Shown here in pieces: positions 4,367 through 39,267 of a stretch of DNA of 64,000 nucleotides; within the stretch, counting starts at the first letter, position 1; each line of letters begins with the position of its first letter. Made by a program: the position numbers and the translations under genes. Source of the stretch: a virus (taxonomy: Duplodnaviria; Heunggongvirae; Uroviricota; Caudoviricetes); the IMG/VR virus record IMGVR_UViG_3300017978_000250, positions 1 to 64,000 of that record; one strand, given 5' to 3'. The notes below the pieces were generated by a model. The model saw only the letters and a program-made list of their open reading frames with translations. It was not told where the DNA came from and made no database searches.

Positions 4367-4865
4367 ATTCTACCAAAGTGACAGAGCCACCACGTTCTTT
4401 AATTACTCTTGCAAAGTTGTCAAGCATTGGGATGATTCGTTCTGGATCGCCCATTGCTAGACCCATACCAATGTAGGGGAATGCCCATCGTTCTTGGGGC
4501 AACCAACCTGCCCACTTATACAACAACAATTCAAAGCCTAGATATTCGAAAACATCTTGACCACGACTAATCGTATATTGTGTATACGCATTAACCAAGA
4601 ACCATGCATCATTCTTACTACGCTCAATAACTGAGTGAGTATAGGTACCTACTTTGTCAAACTTACCTGCTTGTGTTGCATTGTCTGCTTCAACCGCTTG
4701 TGGATAACGACTTGCAATCTCTTTAGCGATGCCGCCGCCCATCATGTTGTAACAGTTACAACCTTGTACTACAACGTCAAACTCACCTGCTTCTGCCATG
4801 TCAAGGATATTACCTCGTGCATGTTTGAGGTGCATAGTTGGAATTGAACCTGGATTGATTGTCAT
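4356..4865 (-). CDS. macro domain protein (ADP-ribose / O-acetyl-ADP-ribose processing)
   Basis: VVVQGCNCYNMMGGGIAKEI motif typical of macro (Appr-1-p) domains. Confidence 0.7.
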   Translation of the reverse strand: MTINPGSIPTMHLKHARGNILDMAEAGEFDVVVQGCNCYNMMGGGIAKEIASRYPQAVEADNATQAGKFDKVGTYTHSVIERSKNDAWFLVNAYTQYTISRGQDVFEYLGFELLLYKWAGWLPQERWAFPYIGMGLAMGDPERIIPMLDNFARVIKERGGSVTLVEFGG

Positions 4866-4866
4866 A

Positions 4867-5886
4867 TTAAGCTCCTAAGAAGTGTTGCAAAATTTCGTAG
4901 TGGTCTTCGAAACATTCTTCCGACTTAACCTCTGCGATTGGTACCCAACGTGCTTTCTCAGCATCGTCACTACCTTTTACTTTGGGCAGTTCGCCATCGG
5001 GCAATTGAATGTAGAATGCGTGTGTAATGATACGACCACGAGGTGAGCGGTCAATAGCATCGAACACTTTACTGCGAACGATACTACCACGCAACACGGG
5101 TGCGGGCACTTTAATCATTGTTTCTTCACGCAACTCACGAATAGCCGCATCTTCTACTGACTTGTCAGTGTTTGCGTTGACATAACCACCGGGCAGTGCC
5201 CACAAACCTTTACCTGGTTCTGCTCTACGCTTAATCATAAGAATGTGACCTGAGCAAATAACCACAGCGTCAGCAGTAGAGAAGATGGGAGGGTACTTCA
5301 AGCTGGCATATTGTTTGTTGTGTTCGATAATGAATTCACGTTCACGGATGATTTGTGCGAATTCCTCAGTCTTACGAAACTCCATTAAGAAGTCATAAGT
5401 AGATGCTGGCACAACATTCTTAATAAAGTTGCTGTTGAAAGTCCAGTTAAAGTACAGGTCACGGATGTTAACTGCACTGAGTGGTTCAATTTCTTCCACA
5501 TCAACGTATTCCCATTGAGGGAACATATCCAAGTAGAAACTTGATTCGTCTTTTTTGTGACCGATGATGGCAGTTTTAGTGCCGAGGATGCGATAGCGTG
5601 ACACGATACTTTGAACACGTACAGCCCACGCTTGGTCGTTGTACACGGTGTCAATATTTCCCTCAATGTGAATATTCATTGACAGACCGCTGGTTGCAGC
5701 CTTAATCATTTTAGCACGTTCGGCACTAGTGAACGGGTTTTTGTAAGTGCGGGGTTGAGCTGCCGAACCTGTGATAATCACGAGGTTGTCGGTCAATGCT
5801 GTGGCTCGCTTGATAATCTCTAAGTGAGCATTGTGAAAAGGTTGAAAGCGTCCGATAAGGACTAGTGTACCATATTGTTTTGACAT
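4867..5886 (-). CDS. natV: bifunctional NMN adenylyltransferase / Nudix ADP-ribose pyrophosphatase (NatV-like)
   Basis: N-terminal cytidylyltransferase GRFQPFHNAH motif; C-terminal Nudix box GGx5Ex7REUxEExGU-like (GGYVNANTDKSVEDAAIRELREET). Confidence 0.85.
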   Translation of the reverse strand: MSKQYGTLVLIGRFQPFHNAHLEIIKRATALTDNLVIITGSAAQPRTYKNPFTSAERAKMIKAATSGLSMNIHIEGNIDTVYNDQAWAVRVQSIVSRYRILGTKTAIIGHKKDESSFYLDMFPQWEYVDVEEIEPLSAVNIRDLYFNWTFNSNFIKNVVPASTYDFLMEFRKTEEFAQIIREREFIIEHNKQYASLKYPPIFSTADAVVICSGHILMIKRRAEPGKGLWALPGGYVNANTDKSVEDAAIRELREETMIKVPAPVLRGSIVRSKVFDAIDRSPRGRIITHAFYIQLPDGELPKVKGSDDAEKARWVPIAEVKSEECFEDHYEILQHFLGA

Positions 5887-22993: not shown

Positions 22994-23330
22994 TATCTAT
23001 CCTTTTCAATTTGTACTGAATTTCCAATCTTTCATGTGCTGCTATAGCTTGTTCCTTAGTGACATACCTAGTGATAACATCACTATCACCATTAGCAAAG
23101 AACCAGCAACTTTCGTATGGAGCAGCTCTATACAACTCGCTGTCCAATTCAACTGTGCTTAGAGTCCTGTCAGCAGGATACATCCAAACATGGTCGTCAC
23201 TGACGATTTGCCAACGTTCTTTATGCATACTATTAAGTGTCACCAAGCTGTTCCTCAGGTCGCTTATTCGGGATGATGAGTCCAGATTCAAGTTCAATTC
23301 CATTAATTGTGTGAGGTTCGTTTTCGTCAT
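22986..23330 (-). CDS. hypothetical protein
   Basis: 114-aa ORF. Confidence 0.45.
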   Translation of the reverse strand: MTKTNLTQLMELNLNLDSSSRISDLRNSLVTLNSMHKERWQIVSDDHVWMYPADRTLSTVELDSELYRAAPYESCWFFANGDSDVITRYVTKEQAIAAHERLEIQYKLKRIDNV

Positions 23331-23736
23331 AAGTCCATCCTAAATGTTTCATCATCTTGTGCTTAACCAACAGATTAGGGCTACGGAAAATTTCAGTATC
23401 TTCAAAGCCCAGCATCACTCCAACTTCACAAACTGCACCACTGCGACAAACGCCAGCAACACAATGCACAATCACATTCATGCGTTGACCGTATGCCTTC
23501 AGCAACAAGTCAACCAATTGTTGAGCCTGTGCATCGGTGACTTTAAATTCCTCAGCACTTGGCATGTCGTCTTTTTCAAGGTCTAAGAATTCAAACTGGT
23601 GAACTTCTTTGAACTGATACTTGGGAGTAGGGAACTCCATACATGGGTCAACAATCTGGATGAGCATGGCATTCTCGCCCGGGTTGATGTGAAAACCTTT
23701 TTGAATGTCGCTCAATGCAACGTTTTGAATCCACAT
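23233..23736 (-). CDS. protein tyrosine / dual-specificity phosphatase
   Basis: VHCVAGVCRSGA = CX5R catalytic loop. Confidence 0.7.
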   Translation of the reverse strand: MWIQNVALSDIQKGFHINPGENAMLIQIVDPCMEFPTPKYQFKEVHQFEFLDLEKDDMPSAEEFKVTDAQAQQLVDLLLKAYGQRMNVIVHCVAGVCRSGAVCEVGVMLGFEDTEIFRSPNLLVKHKMMKHLGWTYDENEPHTINGIELESGLIIPNKRPEEQLGDT

Positions 23737-24194: not shown

Positions 24195-24376
24195 TTTACT
24201 TCCTCCAATTTGTATTCAGGGATAACTCGCAAACTACCTTCAGTCTTGTCACCTTCTATCTCAGTGACCACACGTGACTCTCCTTGTCCAGGATGAGGAA
24301 CACAGGGACCTGCGTCATACCAGAATGTACCTGGCTTCATGTCAAAGTGTTGTTGAGTTAATTTAAATTTCATCAT
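24191..24376 (-). CDS. hypothetical protein
   Basis: 61-aa ORF directly downstream of tRNA at 24381. Confidence 0.4.
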   Translation of the reverse strand: MMKFKLTQQHFDMKPGTFWYDAGPCVPHPGQGESRVVTEIEGDKTEGSLRVIPEYKLEEVK

Positions 24377-24380
24377 TGTT

Positions 24381-24457
24381 TGGTGCCCTTGACAGGACTC
24401 GAACCTGCAGAACCTAGTCTCTCAAACTAGTGCCTATACCAATTCGGCTACAAGGGC
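24381..24457 (-). tRNA. tRNA, apparent anticodon GAG (Leu-type) but class I (short variable arm)
   Basis: Cloverleaf by eye: acceptor GCCCTTG/CAAGGGC, T-loop TTCGAGT, anticodon loop TTGAGAG, encoded CCA; directly downstream of promoter P12. Confidence 0.55.
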
Positions 24458-24475
24458 TTTTTCTTTCAATGATGT

Positions 24476-24504
24476 ATTATACAATGATTTGGGATTTATG
24501 TCAA
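24476..24504 (-). promoter_or_regulatory. sigma70 consensus-type promoter (TTGACA-17-TATAAT)
   Basis: Minus strand reads TTGACATAAATCCCAAATCATTGTATAAT. Confidence 0.7.
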
Positions 24505-25109
24505 GCGCAAAGGAAGCACCCTAGTTGCGCTGATAAAGACTTTTTATAGAATAGTAATATAAAGTATTAAAAATAAAGAACAAAAGACCTCAAGGGTAAT
24601 AATAATGCGAGATTTTCGTCTAGGGTGCTTATGTAAGTATACTGTCTTTTTCAAACACAGAGCCTGTCTTATCGGGCAGGGTGCGACATTATACTTACAT
24701 AAGTGTTCTATCACCTCTCACCACAAGAGTCATAGAACCGAGATGCCTACTCTGTCTACGTATTTATTTTATTCTGGCAGTTGTTAGCGTTCAACTTCCC
24801 TAGATTGTTTCCGTACTCTGAAATTGAGTCGTGTGGTCGAGTCCTAGTGTACCAGATAAGTGATAAGCCAACTTATCATTGGCCATTTGTTATCGTACAA
24901 ATGTAGACGGGGTTTGAGTTTGATATGTCACTAAATGCTCAATCCTGAGAAAGATTTTACGGCATGCCAGCATTTTTTATTGTGAACAGAAGGGGTCTCG
25001 GTTACTGTTTTTAAACTTCTTCATATCAAATTAGGGGTGAATGATTAGGCTGACTCCCAAGCGTCCTCGGGCTTTATTTAAAGTGACGCACACTCACCTA
25101 ATCAATCGT

Positions 25110-26528
25110 TTAAGCCAAGTCGTAACGAGGCTTCATTACGGTCTTCAACATGATTGCTTCTGGGGTGAAGTCATCCATGTTACCGCCCATGATACCACCA
25201 GCAACAGCAGGGCTGAAACCAGAGACTAGAGCAGTACCCTTCTTGTCAAAAGACACAGGGGTGTTACCGTAAGCGGCGTTCAAGTTCCAGAACACAACAT
25301 TAGGAACAGTGTAACCTGCATCCTTAAACTTGCGTTCAATCATTTCGATTGCTGATTCGTCACGGTCTACACCTTGGTCGAATTGCATATCTGAAAAGAT
25401 TACCAATGTTTCAGGCATTTCTGCTTGTGGAACATTGTTCTTAACTGCAACATCCAGGATCAATTCAAACGCCTTGTGCAAGTTAGTGTTAGCTACCTCG
25501 CCTGTGTTCATTTGGTCAATCTTTTGGTTGATGTTACCTGTTAGGTTCACCAACTTAGGACGGTTGCTGAAAGTCAAGAATGTATCCTTGAACTTACCAG
25601 TGTTCTTGTCAGCAAAGTACAAGCCCAAAGAGATTGCAACTTCCAAGCAGGTCAAGCCTGACTTAGAGTTGTAACCACCTGCTGGACAAGTCATTGAACC
25701 TGACGAGTCTACCATTGGCAACACGTTAGCGTCACCGATGTAGTTTGGCAATGCGTTCCATTGCGCTTCCACAACATCCAACTCAGTCTTAGACATAGAG
25801 TTGTAACGACCGATGCGACCCTTAAGGACATCGTACGGGAAGATTGCGGATGCGTTGATTTTAACGCCTGCTTCACCCTTCACCAACTTCGAAACGTATT
25901 CAGCGTATGTTTGACCATGACGACCGAATGCCTTCTTGTATCGTGCGTGAGCAACTGAAGGGACATGTGAGAAGTTGATAGAGTCCCAGTTGTTCGAACA
26001 CATTTGTGTTTCGACAACATTTGTCATACCAACTAGTGTCTTACGATATTGCTTTGGAGTCATACCGAAGAACTCGCGGATTTCACGTGCAAGGGTGCCC
26101 TTACGTGGAGTCCACTTCGCAGCCAAGCCATTGCCGGAACGCAAAGCGTCACCGAGAATGTTGAATGCTTCCCACTTTAGTTTAGGGTCGGTGAAAACGA
26201 ACAAGTCGTCAAATCGACCCACTTCTGGAATCTTCTTCATCAAACGCAAAGCGTCTTCAGGAGAAGTCTTTTCCAAGTGACGCAAAACTGAACGGAACAA
26301 TTCACGTTCACCTGAGCCACCACGAACGTCACGTGCCCATTGAGCAATACGCAACGCCAAATCGGAGTTTTCTACGAAGGCAGCAGTGAAAGCAGGGACA
26401 ATGTCCTTACCTCGGGATGCGCCAATGTTATAGAACAAATCAACGCAAGCGTTTGCGCTGGATGCTCGTGCCTTCATGCCATTGGCAGTGCGGGCTTCTT
26501 GGTTCTTAATCGCTTCTACGAACTTCAT
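25110..26528 (-). CDS. Ro60-like protein (helical TROVE-like N-terminal region plus vWA domain with MIDAS DxSxS)
   Basis: 472 aa; MIDAS motif MVDSSGSM; architecture helical domain plus vWA as in Ro60/Rsr orthologs; Y-RNA-like element in its 5' leader. Confidence 0.55.
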   Translation of the reverse strand: MKFVEAIKNQEARTANGMKARASSANACVDLFYNIGASRGKDIVPAFTAAFVENSDLALRIAQWARDVRGGSGERELFRSVLRHLEKTSPEDALRLMKKIPEVGRFDDLFVFTDPKLKWEAFNILGDALRSGNGLAAKWTPRKGTLAREIREFFGMTPKQYRKTLVGMTNVVETQMCSNNWDSINFSHVPSVAHARYKKAFGRHGQTYAEYVSKLVKGEAGVKINASAIFPYDVLKGRIGRYNSMSKTELDVVEAQWNALPNYIGDANVLPMVDSSGSMTCPAGGYNSKSGLTCLEVAISLGLYFADKNTGKFKDTFLTFSNRPKLVNLTGNINQKIDQMNTGEVANTNLHKAFELILDVAVKNNVPQAEMPETLVIFSDMQFDQGVDRDESAIEMIERKFKDAGYTVPNVVFWNLNAAYGNTPVSFDKKGTALVSGFSPAVAGGIMGGNMDDFTPEAIMLKTVMKPRYDLA

Positions 26529-26552
26529 AGTTTTTCCTTTCTGTGTGTATAT

Positions 26553-26618
26553 GAAGCAGGATACATTTTTTCTTTTATACCAAAAAGTTAAAAGTTGCTG
26601 TTAGTATCCTAAAATTTC
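26553..26618 (-). ncRNA. Y-RNA-like stem element (copy iv) in 5' leader of Ro60-like gene
   Basis: 5' UUUUAGGAUACUAACAGCAAC ... 3' GUAUCCUG; AGGAUAC pairs with GUAUCCU; lies between the Ro promoter and the ATG. Confidence 0.5.
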
Positions 26619-26636
26619 TTACTGTCTAAAGATGTT

Positions 26637-26665
26637 ATTATAACATCCTTTTGAAATACTGTCTG
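26637..26665 (-). promoter_or_regulatory. sigma70-like promoter for Ro60-like gene (CAGACA-17-TATAAT)
   Basis: Minus strand CAGACA then 17-nt spacer then TATAAT. Confidence 0.5.
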
Positions 26666-27116
26666 TACTTTTGGGTACATGACTGGATGGACGAGACGTA
26701 ATTTATTTTTAGGGTCACCCGTCGATATCTCATGACCTTAGCTAACACGTTCACTGTTAGACTGCATATCCCATGTTCTACGGGAGACTATCTTATATTC
26801 TACAAGCACTAGTTAGCCTACCTTGCGGATACTAACATGCGTTAATATTGTTACTTGCTGAAACCATCCAAATATAACAGGTTAGTTGTTGACTGCTTTT
26901 ATTTTACTCAGGCCATCACTCTGAGCTTGTTAGTCTATTTCAATAGCGACCTTCAACGATTCACAGATTTTAACCTGCTTCACTCCAGCCAACTACCATA
27001 GGGTCTAACGATTCATAGTTAATGAATATTGCTGCGCCTAACCTTATGAAACTCGATACAAGTATTATAGCACAAATTCTTTGTTCTACAATACATTTTG
27101 GGTAACTAAATACTGA

Positions 27117-37280: not shown

Positions 37281-37355
37281 TGGTAGCCACGGACAATTTT
37301 GAAATGTCGACCTATCGCTTATCAAGCGAGTGCTCTTCCTCTGAGCTACGCGGCT
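37281..37355 (-). tRNA. tRNA-Ile(GAU)
   Basis: D stem GCTC/GAGC, loop TTGATAA, CCA. Confidence 0.65.
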
Positions 37356-37372
37356 ATATGTTTGGTGCCTCC

Positions 37373-37447
37373 ACCTGGGTTCGAACCAGGGACTCCCACC
37401 TTATCAAGATGATACTCTACCACTGAGTTATAGAGGCATTAATTGTT
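37373..37447 (-). tRNA. tRNA-Ile(GAU)-like (second copy)
   Basis: Loop TTGATAA, T arm CCTGG-TTCGAAC-CCAGG, CCA. Confidence 0.6.
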
Positions 37448-38808: not shown

Positions 38809-38883
38809 TGGTAGGGGTGCTTGGAATCGAACCAAGATTAGCGAGTTCAAAGCCCGCGGTGATAACCATTACACTACACCCCA
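38809..38883 (-). tRNA. tRNA-Gln(UUG)-like with U1/U72 mismatch
   Basis: Acceptor TGGGGTG, anticodon stem GCGGG/CTCGC, loop CTTTGAA, T arm CTTGG-TTCGATT-CCAAG, CCA. Confidence 0.6.
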
Positions 38884-39267
38884 ACAAATACTATTCATTA
38901 GTATATAAGCAGTGCCCGTCAGAAGGATACTGTACTTTTCATCTTATTATACTAATGAATAGCATCTTTCGATGCTATGATAGGGTTGATACCCTACCCA
39001 GTGATTTTAGTCTCTGCATTATCGCTACAGATTTCATCCTACTGTCCGCCCATTCGATACACTTAACGCTGTATTCCGGCTCTCGTTGCCTATTCACGTT
39101 TGAGTTTAACGAGCTTTCAGGACGTGCCTTACTTTCTTGTCAAACTCTTTTTGATTGAGATATCGTTGAACTTTATCTTCAATCAATTTTTTTCTTTCTT
39201 CCTCAGTGTAAGAATGATTCTTCAACCATTCAGACCTGTCATTCTTCAATTCTTTTATGTCCATATA

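Follow-up and report, generated by a model that had tools for sequence, protein, structure and literature searches.

The 600-bp stretch that follows a Ro60-like gene in an IMG/VR viral record is most probably (about 0.6) a set of five structured non-coding RNA modules, which would be stable small RNAs derived from a polycistronic tRNA-island transcript, the last of them, module E, closing the 3′ end in the DNA studied here. The stretch (24505-25109) is part of the 64,000 nucleotides that were analysed, called hereafter the window. An earlier note had proposed a candidate ncRNA at this place, and this is strongly supported: dozens of related viral contigs conserve a structured RNA on the minus strand, with compensatory changes and G-U pairs. 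The same note had suggested a comparison with relatives, which found the whole of 24505-25109 conserved in dozens of related contigs.

Results

A gap between a Ro60-like gene and a promoter in a tRNA island

The window is a phage-like tRNA island, whose 44 tRNA genes are without exception on the minus strand. A full-length GOLLD RNA (31568-32033, minus strand; Rfam match of 208 bits, E 2e-57) lies in the common tRNA island, 7 kb from 24505-25109, and a tRNA-Lys(ctt) gene (31898-31970) is embedded in its variable region. Elsewhere, a minus-strand stretch of 97 nt (30487-30583), which adjoins tRNA-Met (30399-30476), matches the Rfam tRNA model with 56 bits, and ARAGORN makes no call there. Possibly this is a tRNA that contains an insertion or an intron.

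The region is bounded on one side by the TAA stop codon of the 472-aa Ro60-like gene (25110-26528, minus strand), and on the other by a perfect sigma-70 consensus promoter, TTGACA-N17-TATAAT (24504..24476, minus strand), which precedes a tRNA-Leu(gag) gene (24457..24381, minus strand). Eighteen perfect TTGACA-N16-18-TATAAT sites were found in the window (7494-46243), all on the minus strand, for 0.05 expected, and they look like a uniform early-promoter set. The spacer AATAATC...TTTTGG is common to many of them. A GCGCA...UGCGC hairpin is found upstream of the promoter 24504..24476 only.

A 15-bp inverted repeat had been described at about 24627-24712. The repeat is real, and these figures are approximately right: its arms (24628-24646 and 24685-24703) are 19 nt long with one mismatch (95% complementary), contain a perfect core of 14 nt, and lie 38 nt apart. 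Perfect inverted repeats of at least 14 nt with a loop of at most 80 nt were found only twice in the 64-kb window, against a mean of 0.045 in 200 first-order Markov resamplings; the repeat at 24628-24703 is far beyond chance. The other place, 38891-38962, is just past tRNA-Gln (38809-38883), the last tRNA of the array. Both hairpins listed by the earlier note are also present, and are kept as hairpins in relatives: GCGCAA...TTGCGC (24505-24530, minus strand), which touches the -35, and GCCAA-TGATAAG-TTGGC on the RNA strand, previously given as 24868-24890 and located here at about 24867-24883 (minus strand).

The description of the region as free of ORFs was borne out as well, the longest frames being 56 aa on the gene strand and 60 aa on the other strand. 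These small ORFs were rejected as coding, neither being conserved in relatives. They would be the starting point for a reading in which the region is no RNA, but a small protein gene or the remnant of one, or else acts as DNA, for example as an operator or an origin. The recurrence in close relatives of the antisense frame over module B and the AT-rich tract beside the promoter could be quoted in its favour. However, indels of 1 and 4 nt disrupt the frames from one relative to another, no Pfam match was found, and the compensatory changes and G-U wobbles described below extend over 60-110 nt, which DNA-level elements do not need. We regard such a reading as highly improbable.

Relatives and search results

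A set of 80 related IMG/VR loci was gathered via the neighbouring protein (69-97% protein identity). Their contigs come from what we take, by the sample ids, to be freshwater metagenomes. When the DNA that follows the stop codon was compared, conservation proved to be modular, the modules being detected separately. A further sample was obtained by a 16-mer pattern scan of IMG/VR, which gave 88 stretches, 84 of them newly fetched; the covariance model of module C1 (see below) kept 62 of these 84 and removed 22 as chance, which together with four contigs known beforehand makes 66 C1-bearing contigs. The related contigs are close to each other in phylogeny, and an arrangement that they share does not count as several independent observations.

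No catalogued RNA family accounts for the region. A cmscan of 24300-25300 against Rfam 15, at E up to 10, detected only the flanking tRNA-Leu and chance matches. The best of the latter was mir-8517, with 29 bits for a gathering score of 70, and is due to the long hairpin. With Rfam in gathering and E-value modes, nothing was found in the region, nor in the gap upstream of the Ro60-like gene. A blastn search against 50,697 phage records returned tRNA matches only, so that the region has no cultured close relatives there. No paralogue of the region was found elsewhere in the window, and an exact-pattern scan of 185,579 species genomes gave no cellular homologue: its single match, in a Pelagibacteraceae single-cell genome, was a chance one, inside a coding region. 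The modules are thus a new family of phage tRNA-island RNAs, uncatalogued in Rfam 15.

Raw MAFFT alignment followed by RNAalifold recovered the structures of modules C1 and B in part only, because of indels. As a remedy, a hand-given structure and a covariance model were used for C1, and hand-placed helices for B.

Module C1, the hairpin built on the inverted repeat

Module C1 (24628..24703, minus strand) is a hairpin of about 76 nt, whose basal stem P1 is the inverted repeat. P1 is long and AU-rich (14-22 bp, often with one mismatch). Beyond it come a 3-4-bp helix (GCA/UGU, ACA/UGU or GUA/UAC), the bulges C and CUC, a helix CCUG/CAGG and the apical loop CCGAUAAGA (24667-24675), and the same fold is found in every C1 copy. 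The apical loop is invariant, and is written C(C)CGAUAAGA across copies. The 3′ strand of the internal loop, UUUGAAAAAG, which is 10 nt long and contains GAAA, is conserved. In the upper helix, CCWG/CWGG across copies, a U-A pair swaps to A-U from one copy to another.

The C1 covariance model was built on 11 equal-length copies with the hand-given structure. It had one match only in the window (24624-24707, minus strand, 75 bits). Among 81 sequences (the 80 related loci and the window), a single copy was detected in 37, always on the strand of the gene, and none in the remaining 44. Where the top matches on the sense strand reached about 100 bits, the opposite strand did not exceed 28. Many G-U pairs work only on the minus strand, which is therefore the RNA strand. 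In an alignment of 36 distinct sequences fitted to the model, 95.2% of the cells were paired, against 29-41% with slid partners, and compensatory changes affected 20 of 26 pairs. The covariation score was 0.549, versus at most 0.108 in the controls. Covariation support for C1 is therefore strong.

One claim made about this stem did not survive the comparison. The octamer UACUUACA had been described as reminiscent of the conserved Y-like motif, but this part of the stem covaries in relatives (UACUUUCA, UACUUCCA, UGCUUAUA), and is therefore not a conserved motif. The octamer is not enriched in the window either (7 copies versus 3.9 expected).

Modules B, A and V

Module B (24705..24883, minus strand) is a multi-helix RNA of about 170 nt. 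It comprises a 5′ hairpin (24867-24883, loop UGAUAAG), a long-range helix CUAGG/CUAGG, two inner hairpins, and a terminal hairpin (24705-24738) whose loop UGUGGUG is invariant. In 27 distinct sequences aligned with MAFFT, 90.2% of the cells were paired, versus 39-47% in slid controls. Compensatory changes were found at 21 of 29 pairs, and the covariation score was 0.403, against at most 0.105. A promoter-like site in this module (24794..24766, 9/12 matches) was rejected as an RNA promoter, as relatives do not conserve it, and no conserved promoter proper to the region was found inside 24505-25109.

Module A (25036..25105, minus strand) starts 4 nt after the stop codon and folds into a three-way junction, with a 9-bp closing stem, GAUUAGG.../...CCUAAUC, and two inner hairpins. 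It was found in 8 distinct relatives, for which RNAalifold gave 19 pairs, 6 of them with compensatory changes. Module V (24884..25035, minus strand) consists of a long-range 9-bp helix (UUUGAUAUG.../...CAUAUCAAA) around three hairpins; 6 distinct relatives contain it, with 27 RNAalifold pairs and 4 showing compensatory changes. Both modules have consistent consensus folds and moderate structure support, as they rest on few close relatives; for A, the support is only moderate because the sequences are few and closely related.

A loop of sequence (U/C)GAUAAG recurs in the region: it is found in the apical loop of C1 (24667-24675), in the 5′ hairpin of module B (24867-24883) and, in some relatives, in an optional hairpin of module E. 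In four loci (L064, L123, L004 and L005), this last hairpin reads GGGC-CUGAUAA-GCCC, with a 7-nt loop identical to the anticodon loop of tRNA-Ile(GAU). The tRNA-Ile genes of the window (37281-37437) have the loop UUGAUAA followed by G. Judging from the sequences, the recurring loop could be a shared binding site or a case of anticodon-loop mimicry.

Module E and the 3′ boundary

Module E (24505..24627, minus strand) contains a long-range helix, P3, and a hairpin, P5, and abuts the next promoter. The 5′ strand of P3, GCACCCUAG (24620-24628), comes directly after P1. Its 3′ strand, CUAGGGUGC (24516-24524), lies in the loop of P5 (GCGCAA...UUGCGC, 24505-24530), which closes the module. P3 encloses an optional variable hairpin (24587-24597), an AU-rich tract, and a single-stranded GUUCUUUA (24574-24581) that is invariant in 30 of 30 distinct sequences; all these elements are on the minus strand. 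In relatives, P1 is mostly followed by (G/A)CACCCUAG and then, 58-94 nt further on, by CUAGGGUG(C/U).

The 9 bp of P3 are paired in all 28 distinct sequences of a plain MAFFT alignment, which was not fitted to the structure. Compensatory changes were observed at 4 of the 9 pairs (G-C to A-U 13 times, C-G to U-A 4 times), the further changes being single cases and wobbles. P5 is 85-96% paired with few compensations, which gives weak covariation support. If P3 and P5 were both formed, with the 3′ strand of P3 in the loop of P5, the result would be a pseudoknot.

P5 touches the -35 in 24 or more relatives. In three loci (L075, L128 and L002), neither the 3′ half of P5 nor the promoter is present, and a canonical terminator (L075), a tRNA-Leu (L128) or the start of an ORF (L002) is found within about 10 nt after P3. 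These switches place a functional 3′ boundary of the RNA just after P3. The ORF of L002 (about 6017 onward) starts right after P3 and replaces the promoter. In relatives, the usual next gene after module E and the promoter is phosphatase-like; in the window this dual-specificity-phosphatase-like gene (23233-23736, minus strand) encodes the motif HCxxGxxRS and the N-terminus MPWIQNVAL... In one locus (L099, 4293-4853), the unit formed by C1, E, the promoter and the phosphatase gene stands behind a rubrerythrin-like gene and not behind a Ro60-like gene.

Given that it abuts the next promoter, module E may be a regulatory structure, as the earlier note had put forward among its options. An extended form of this idea makes the gap a cis-acting 3′-UTR or intergenic device, which would stabilise the 3′ end of the upstream mRNA, provide an RNase III-type site, or insulate the promoter from read-through. 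The position between a gene and a strong promoter, the contact of P5 with the -35, and the canonical terminator that in L075 replaces the 3′ half of P5 all agree with such a device, and the long stem and internal loop of C1 are like the RNase III sites of phage T7. However, an intrinsic-terminator scan of the minus strand of 24505-25109 found none, P5 being followed by UUGACAUAAAU; there is no U-tract at C1 or P5, and the other terminators of the window are canonical. Moreover, C1 is also found between tRNAs, where no such device is needed, and the invariant loops CCGAUAAGA, GUUCUUUA and UGUGGUG exceed what end protection needs. We regard a cis-acting role for the gap as quite improbable.

Modules are recombined among relatives

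In the window, the five modules fill the whole gap with 0-4 nt between them, and the helices of B, C1 and E are only 0-1 nt apart. Because of these minimal spacers, B, C1 and E could function as one composite RNA. A stronger proposal is that A-V-B-C1-E folds as one large ornate RNA, about 650 nt long and of the type of GOLLD and ROOL, which likewise occur in phage tRNA islands, GOLLD being present 7 kb away. An RNA of this type is one transcript of more than 500 nt, with domains that depend on each other for their folding. The contiguity of five covarying modules fits this proposal, as do the z-score of the minus-strand fold (-3.3) and the complete A-V-B-C1-E order found also in L075, L128 and L002 (L123 has V-B-C1-E, A not being detected).

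The distribution of the modules among the 80 loci speaks against it. Nineteen loci have C1 and E only, beginning about 35 nt after the stop codon, 14 have B but neither C1 nor E, 11 have all three of B, C1 and E, and 26 have none of the modules; in L003, E is present and C1 is not. Modules can also be separated by a tRNA or an ORF: in L001 a 159-aa ORF (5057-5536) lies between B and C1. The one inter-module helix that was tested, a long-range complementarity of 24736-24751 with 24988-25003, was rejected for want of covariation in relatives, and no large-RNA model of Rfam matches. That the five modules form a single large RNA is therefore unlikely.

C1 is flush with tRNA genes in some relatives

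In seven loci, C1 is located 0-11 nt from tRNA genes (L088, L094, L146, L147, L151, L082 and L058). P1 ends 0-4 nt before a tRNA in five of them (L088, L094, L147, L151 and L058), and C1 begins about 11 nt after a tRNA in L082. In L146, C1 is flush between tRNA-Gly and tRNA-Met, and B is found upstream of that tRNA-Gly. C1 thereby resembles the stable non-tRNA RNAs of phage tRNA operons, which are inside the tRNA array, flush with its genes and on the same strand. Since it is flush with tRNA genes in relatives, C1 most likely exists, after excision, as a separate and stable small RNA; its ends are deduced from these flush neighbours.

The position of C1 relative to the Ro-like gene was determined in the 66 C1-bearing contigs, 6 of which were too short to place it. 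The gene is at most 733 nt upstream in 46 contigs (46 of the 60 informative ones), and is located on the other side of C1, at 3.8-9.4 kb, in two. In the remaining 12, no Ro-like gene is present within 1.5-11 kb upstream, and C1 there lies inside tRNA arrays.

The neighbouring protein

The 472-aa product of the gene at 25110..26528 (minus strand) has a helical-repeat N-terminal part and a vWA domain. It matches Pfam DUF2828 and DUF7788, with a weak VWA_2 match and no TROVE match, and PHROG 850, annotated 'RNA-binding protein' (E 9e-143). Its metal-binding motif DxSxS (D274-S276-S278) is invariant. A phmmer search of PDB sequences gave no match. An AlphaFold (AF2) model made from a shallow alignment was poor (pLDDT 62.5); the best Foldseek matches of this low-confidence model in the PDB were Xenopus Ro60 structures, matched over the full length (1yvr/1yvp, E 9e-5, with a TM of only 0.27). 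The predicted fold makes it plausible that 'Ro60-like' stands for remote homology, and not for orthology.

Homologues of the protein are present in 710 cultured phage records, 54 of them from Listeria phages, and no RNA partner has been shown for them in the literature searched. The cultured freshwater cyanophage BUCT-ZZ01 of Synechococcus (L166) has a homologous gene among tRNAs, and the C1 model had no match on this phage. The gene is flanked there by unannotated tRNA genes (4396-4878 and 1963-2140), and the 484-nt gap downstream of it contains three tRNAs, two of them unusually long (113-114 nt).

A second gap of about 590 nt without long ORF (26529-27116, minus strand) is located directly upstream of the Ro60-like gene in the window, and an extended -10 promoter near 27075 is ahead of it. 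Many more relatives conserve this gap than conserve the downstream region, the most distant ones (L079, L054 and L020) among them, and it is for this reason a better-linked candidate for a gene-associated RNA. It has no Rfam match, no CGAA motif and no Y-RNA hallmarks.

Are the modules Y RNAs?

The earlier note had further suggested that the region might be the principal Y RNA of the phage. In this case one or more modules, C1 being the best candidate, would be a Y-RNA analogue and a dedicated RNA ligand of the adjacent protein, acting on it as Y RNAs act on Rsr/Ro60, by gating it or by tethering it to a nuclease. The published traits of Y RNAs (PMC4201824, PMC12135203) are a gene close to that of Ro60 and in the same orientation; a motif near the 5′ end, which is GNCGAAN0-1G in bacteria and GGUCCGA in animals; in YrlA, a tRNA-like domain with near-invariant T and D stem-loops; and a stem that pairs the 5′ and 3′ ends around a large loop. 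The distance to Ro60, on the same strand, is within 4 kb (PMC4201824). The Ro60 of Thermus phage phiLo binds neighbouring Yrl RNAs (PMC12135203), and Listeria phage CKA15 has abundant ncRNAs near a protein whose best HHpred match is D. radiodurans Rsr (PMC12282133).

Several points agree with such a partnership. The neighbouring protein resembles Ro60 by its Foldseek matches, by its helical part followed by a vWA domain with DxSxS, and by its PHROG label. The RNAs begin 4 nt after its stop codon on the same strand, and most informative contigs keep the gene close upstream of C1. The ends of C1 pair in a long stem, followed by a large asymmetric internal loop of 10 nt and an upper stem.

The specific hallmarks, however, are missing. 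A regular-expression search of the minus strand of 24458-25109 found neither GNCGAAN0-1G nor GGUCCGA, and the single CGAA (24618) is not conserved in relatives. In the same interval, ARAGORN and the Rfam tRNA model found nothing, and neither GTTCRANYC nor a TTCRA T-loop is present; nor is there an Rfam match at E up to 10. C1 conserves its apex while its basal stem covaries, which is the opposite of Y RNAs. Association with the gene is loose, C1 being absent from 44 of 81 sequences, 12 contigs having no gene within 1.5-11 kb upstream and two having it on the other side, and the gene is much more regularly accompanied by its own upstream region. Finally, the gene family resides in tRNA islands even without C1, as in BUCT-ZZ01. 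Adjacency may therefore be a by-product of a shared location in tRNA islands, which weakens the argument drawn from it.

A Y-RNA role of the modules is possible, and no tested feature supports their being the principal Y RNA: they have no Ro-binding motif, no T/D arms and no Rfam match, and C1 is found in only 37 of 81 sequences. We consider it doubtful that any module is the dedicated ligand of the Ro60-like protein. It is somewhat more doubtful still that C1, possibly with B, is a structurally new Y RNA devoid of CGAA and of tRNA-like arms, matured from tRNA operons, with its (U/C)GAUAAG loops acting as a recognition element or as an anticodon-loop mimic.

Discussion

In our preferred reading, that of small RNAs released from a tRNA-island transcript, modules A, V, B, C1 and E would be transcribed on the minus strand as a 3′ continuation of the Ro60-like gene transcript, in the tRNA island of what is probably an uncultured freshwater jumbo phage. 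C1 itself, a hairpin of about 76-84 nt, would be freed from this transcript by tRNA-trimming enzymes and persist as a separate, stable small RNA: its 3′ side would be cut by RNase P, and its 5′ side set free by 3′-end trimming of the preceding tRNA. We infer these ends and this processing from the gene arrangement in relatives. Once released, C1 would act in trans and probably bind a protein. In the window no tRNA comes directly after C1, which runs straight into E; there, the RNA would be closed, immediately ahead of the following early promoter, by the 9-bp long-range helix P3 and the terminal hairpin.

The analysis adds at least three RNA motifs with good support (B, C1 and E), none of them in Rfam 15. 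They are reshuffled like cassettes and appear to mature via tRNA processing. Jumbo phages with large tRNA islands carry structured RNAs of unknown role, GOLLD being an example. Should one of the modules bind the Ro60-like protein, it would become possible to test directly what a very common phage RNA-binding protein does. Should none bind it, the modules would still be new candidates among the phage RNAs by which host RNA metabolism or defence is manipulated.

The modules can be compared with four known systems. With the Y RNAs of bacteria and phages (YrlA/Yrl), they share the location beside a Ro60-like gene on the same strand, the paired ends and large internal loop of C1, and the tRNA-related setting. 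Unlike these RNAs, they have no Ro-binding motif, no tRNA-like arms and no covariance-model match, the conserved part of C1 is apical and not basal, and linkage to the gene is not obligatory. The partner protein differs as well, since the neighbour here is a DUF2828 and DUF7788 protein, a remote relative of Ro60 outside Pfam TROVE, and not Rsr/Ro60 itself. GOLLD and ROOL are, like the modules, phage-borne, multi-domain and rich in covariation, and are found among tRNA genes, a GOLLD copy being present in the same window. In contrast to them, the modules match no Rfam model, are separable and reshuffled among relatives, and give no sign of a single large fold.

The RNase III hairpins of phage T7 are intergenic elements of early polycistronic transcripts, in which an asymmetric internal loop separates a lower from an upper stem. 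C1 is more elaborate, with its invariant loops, and is found flush between tRNAs, where RNase P and tRNA 3′ trimming suffice. The tRNA cluster of phage T4 encodes the stable small RNAs species 1 and 2 (rnaC/rnaD), which are not tRNAs and are presumably matured by the tRNA machinery. Whereas several modules of the window would also form a 3′ extension of a protein-coding gene, the likeness to species 1 and 2 is that of non-tRNA small RNAs in a phage tRNA operon, presumably matured by tRNA processing.
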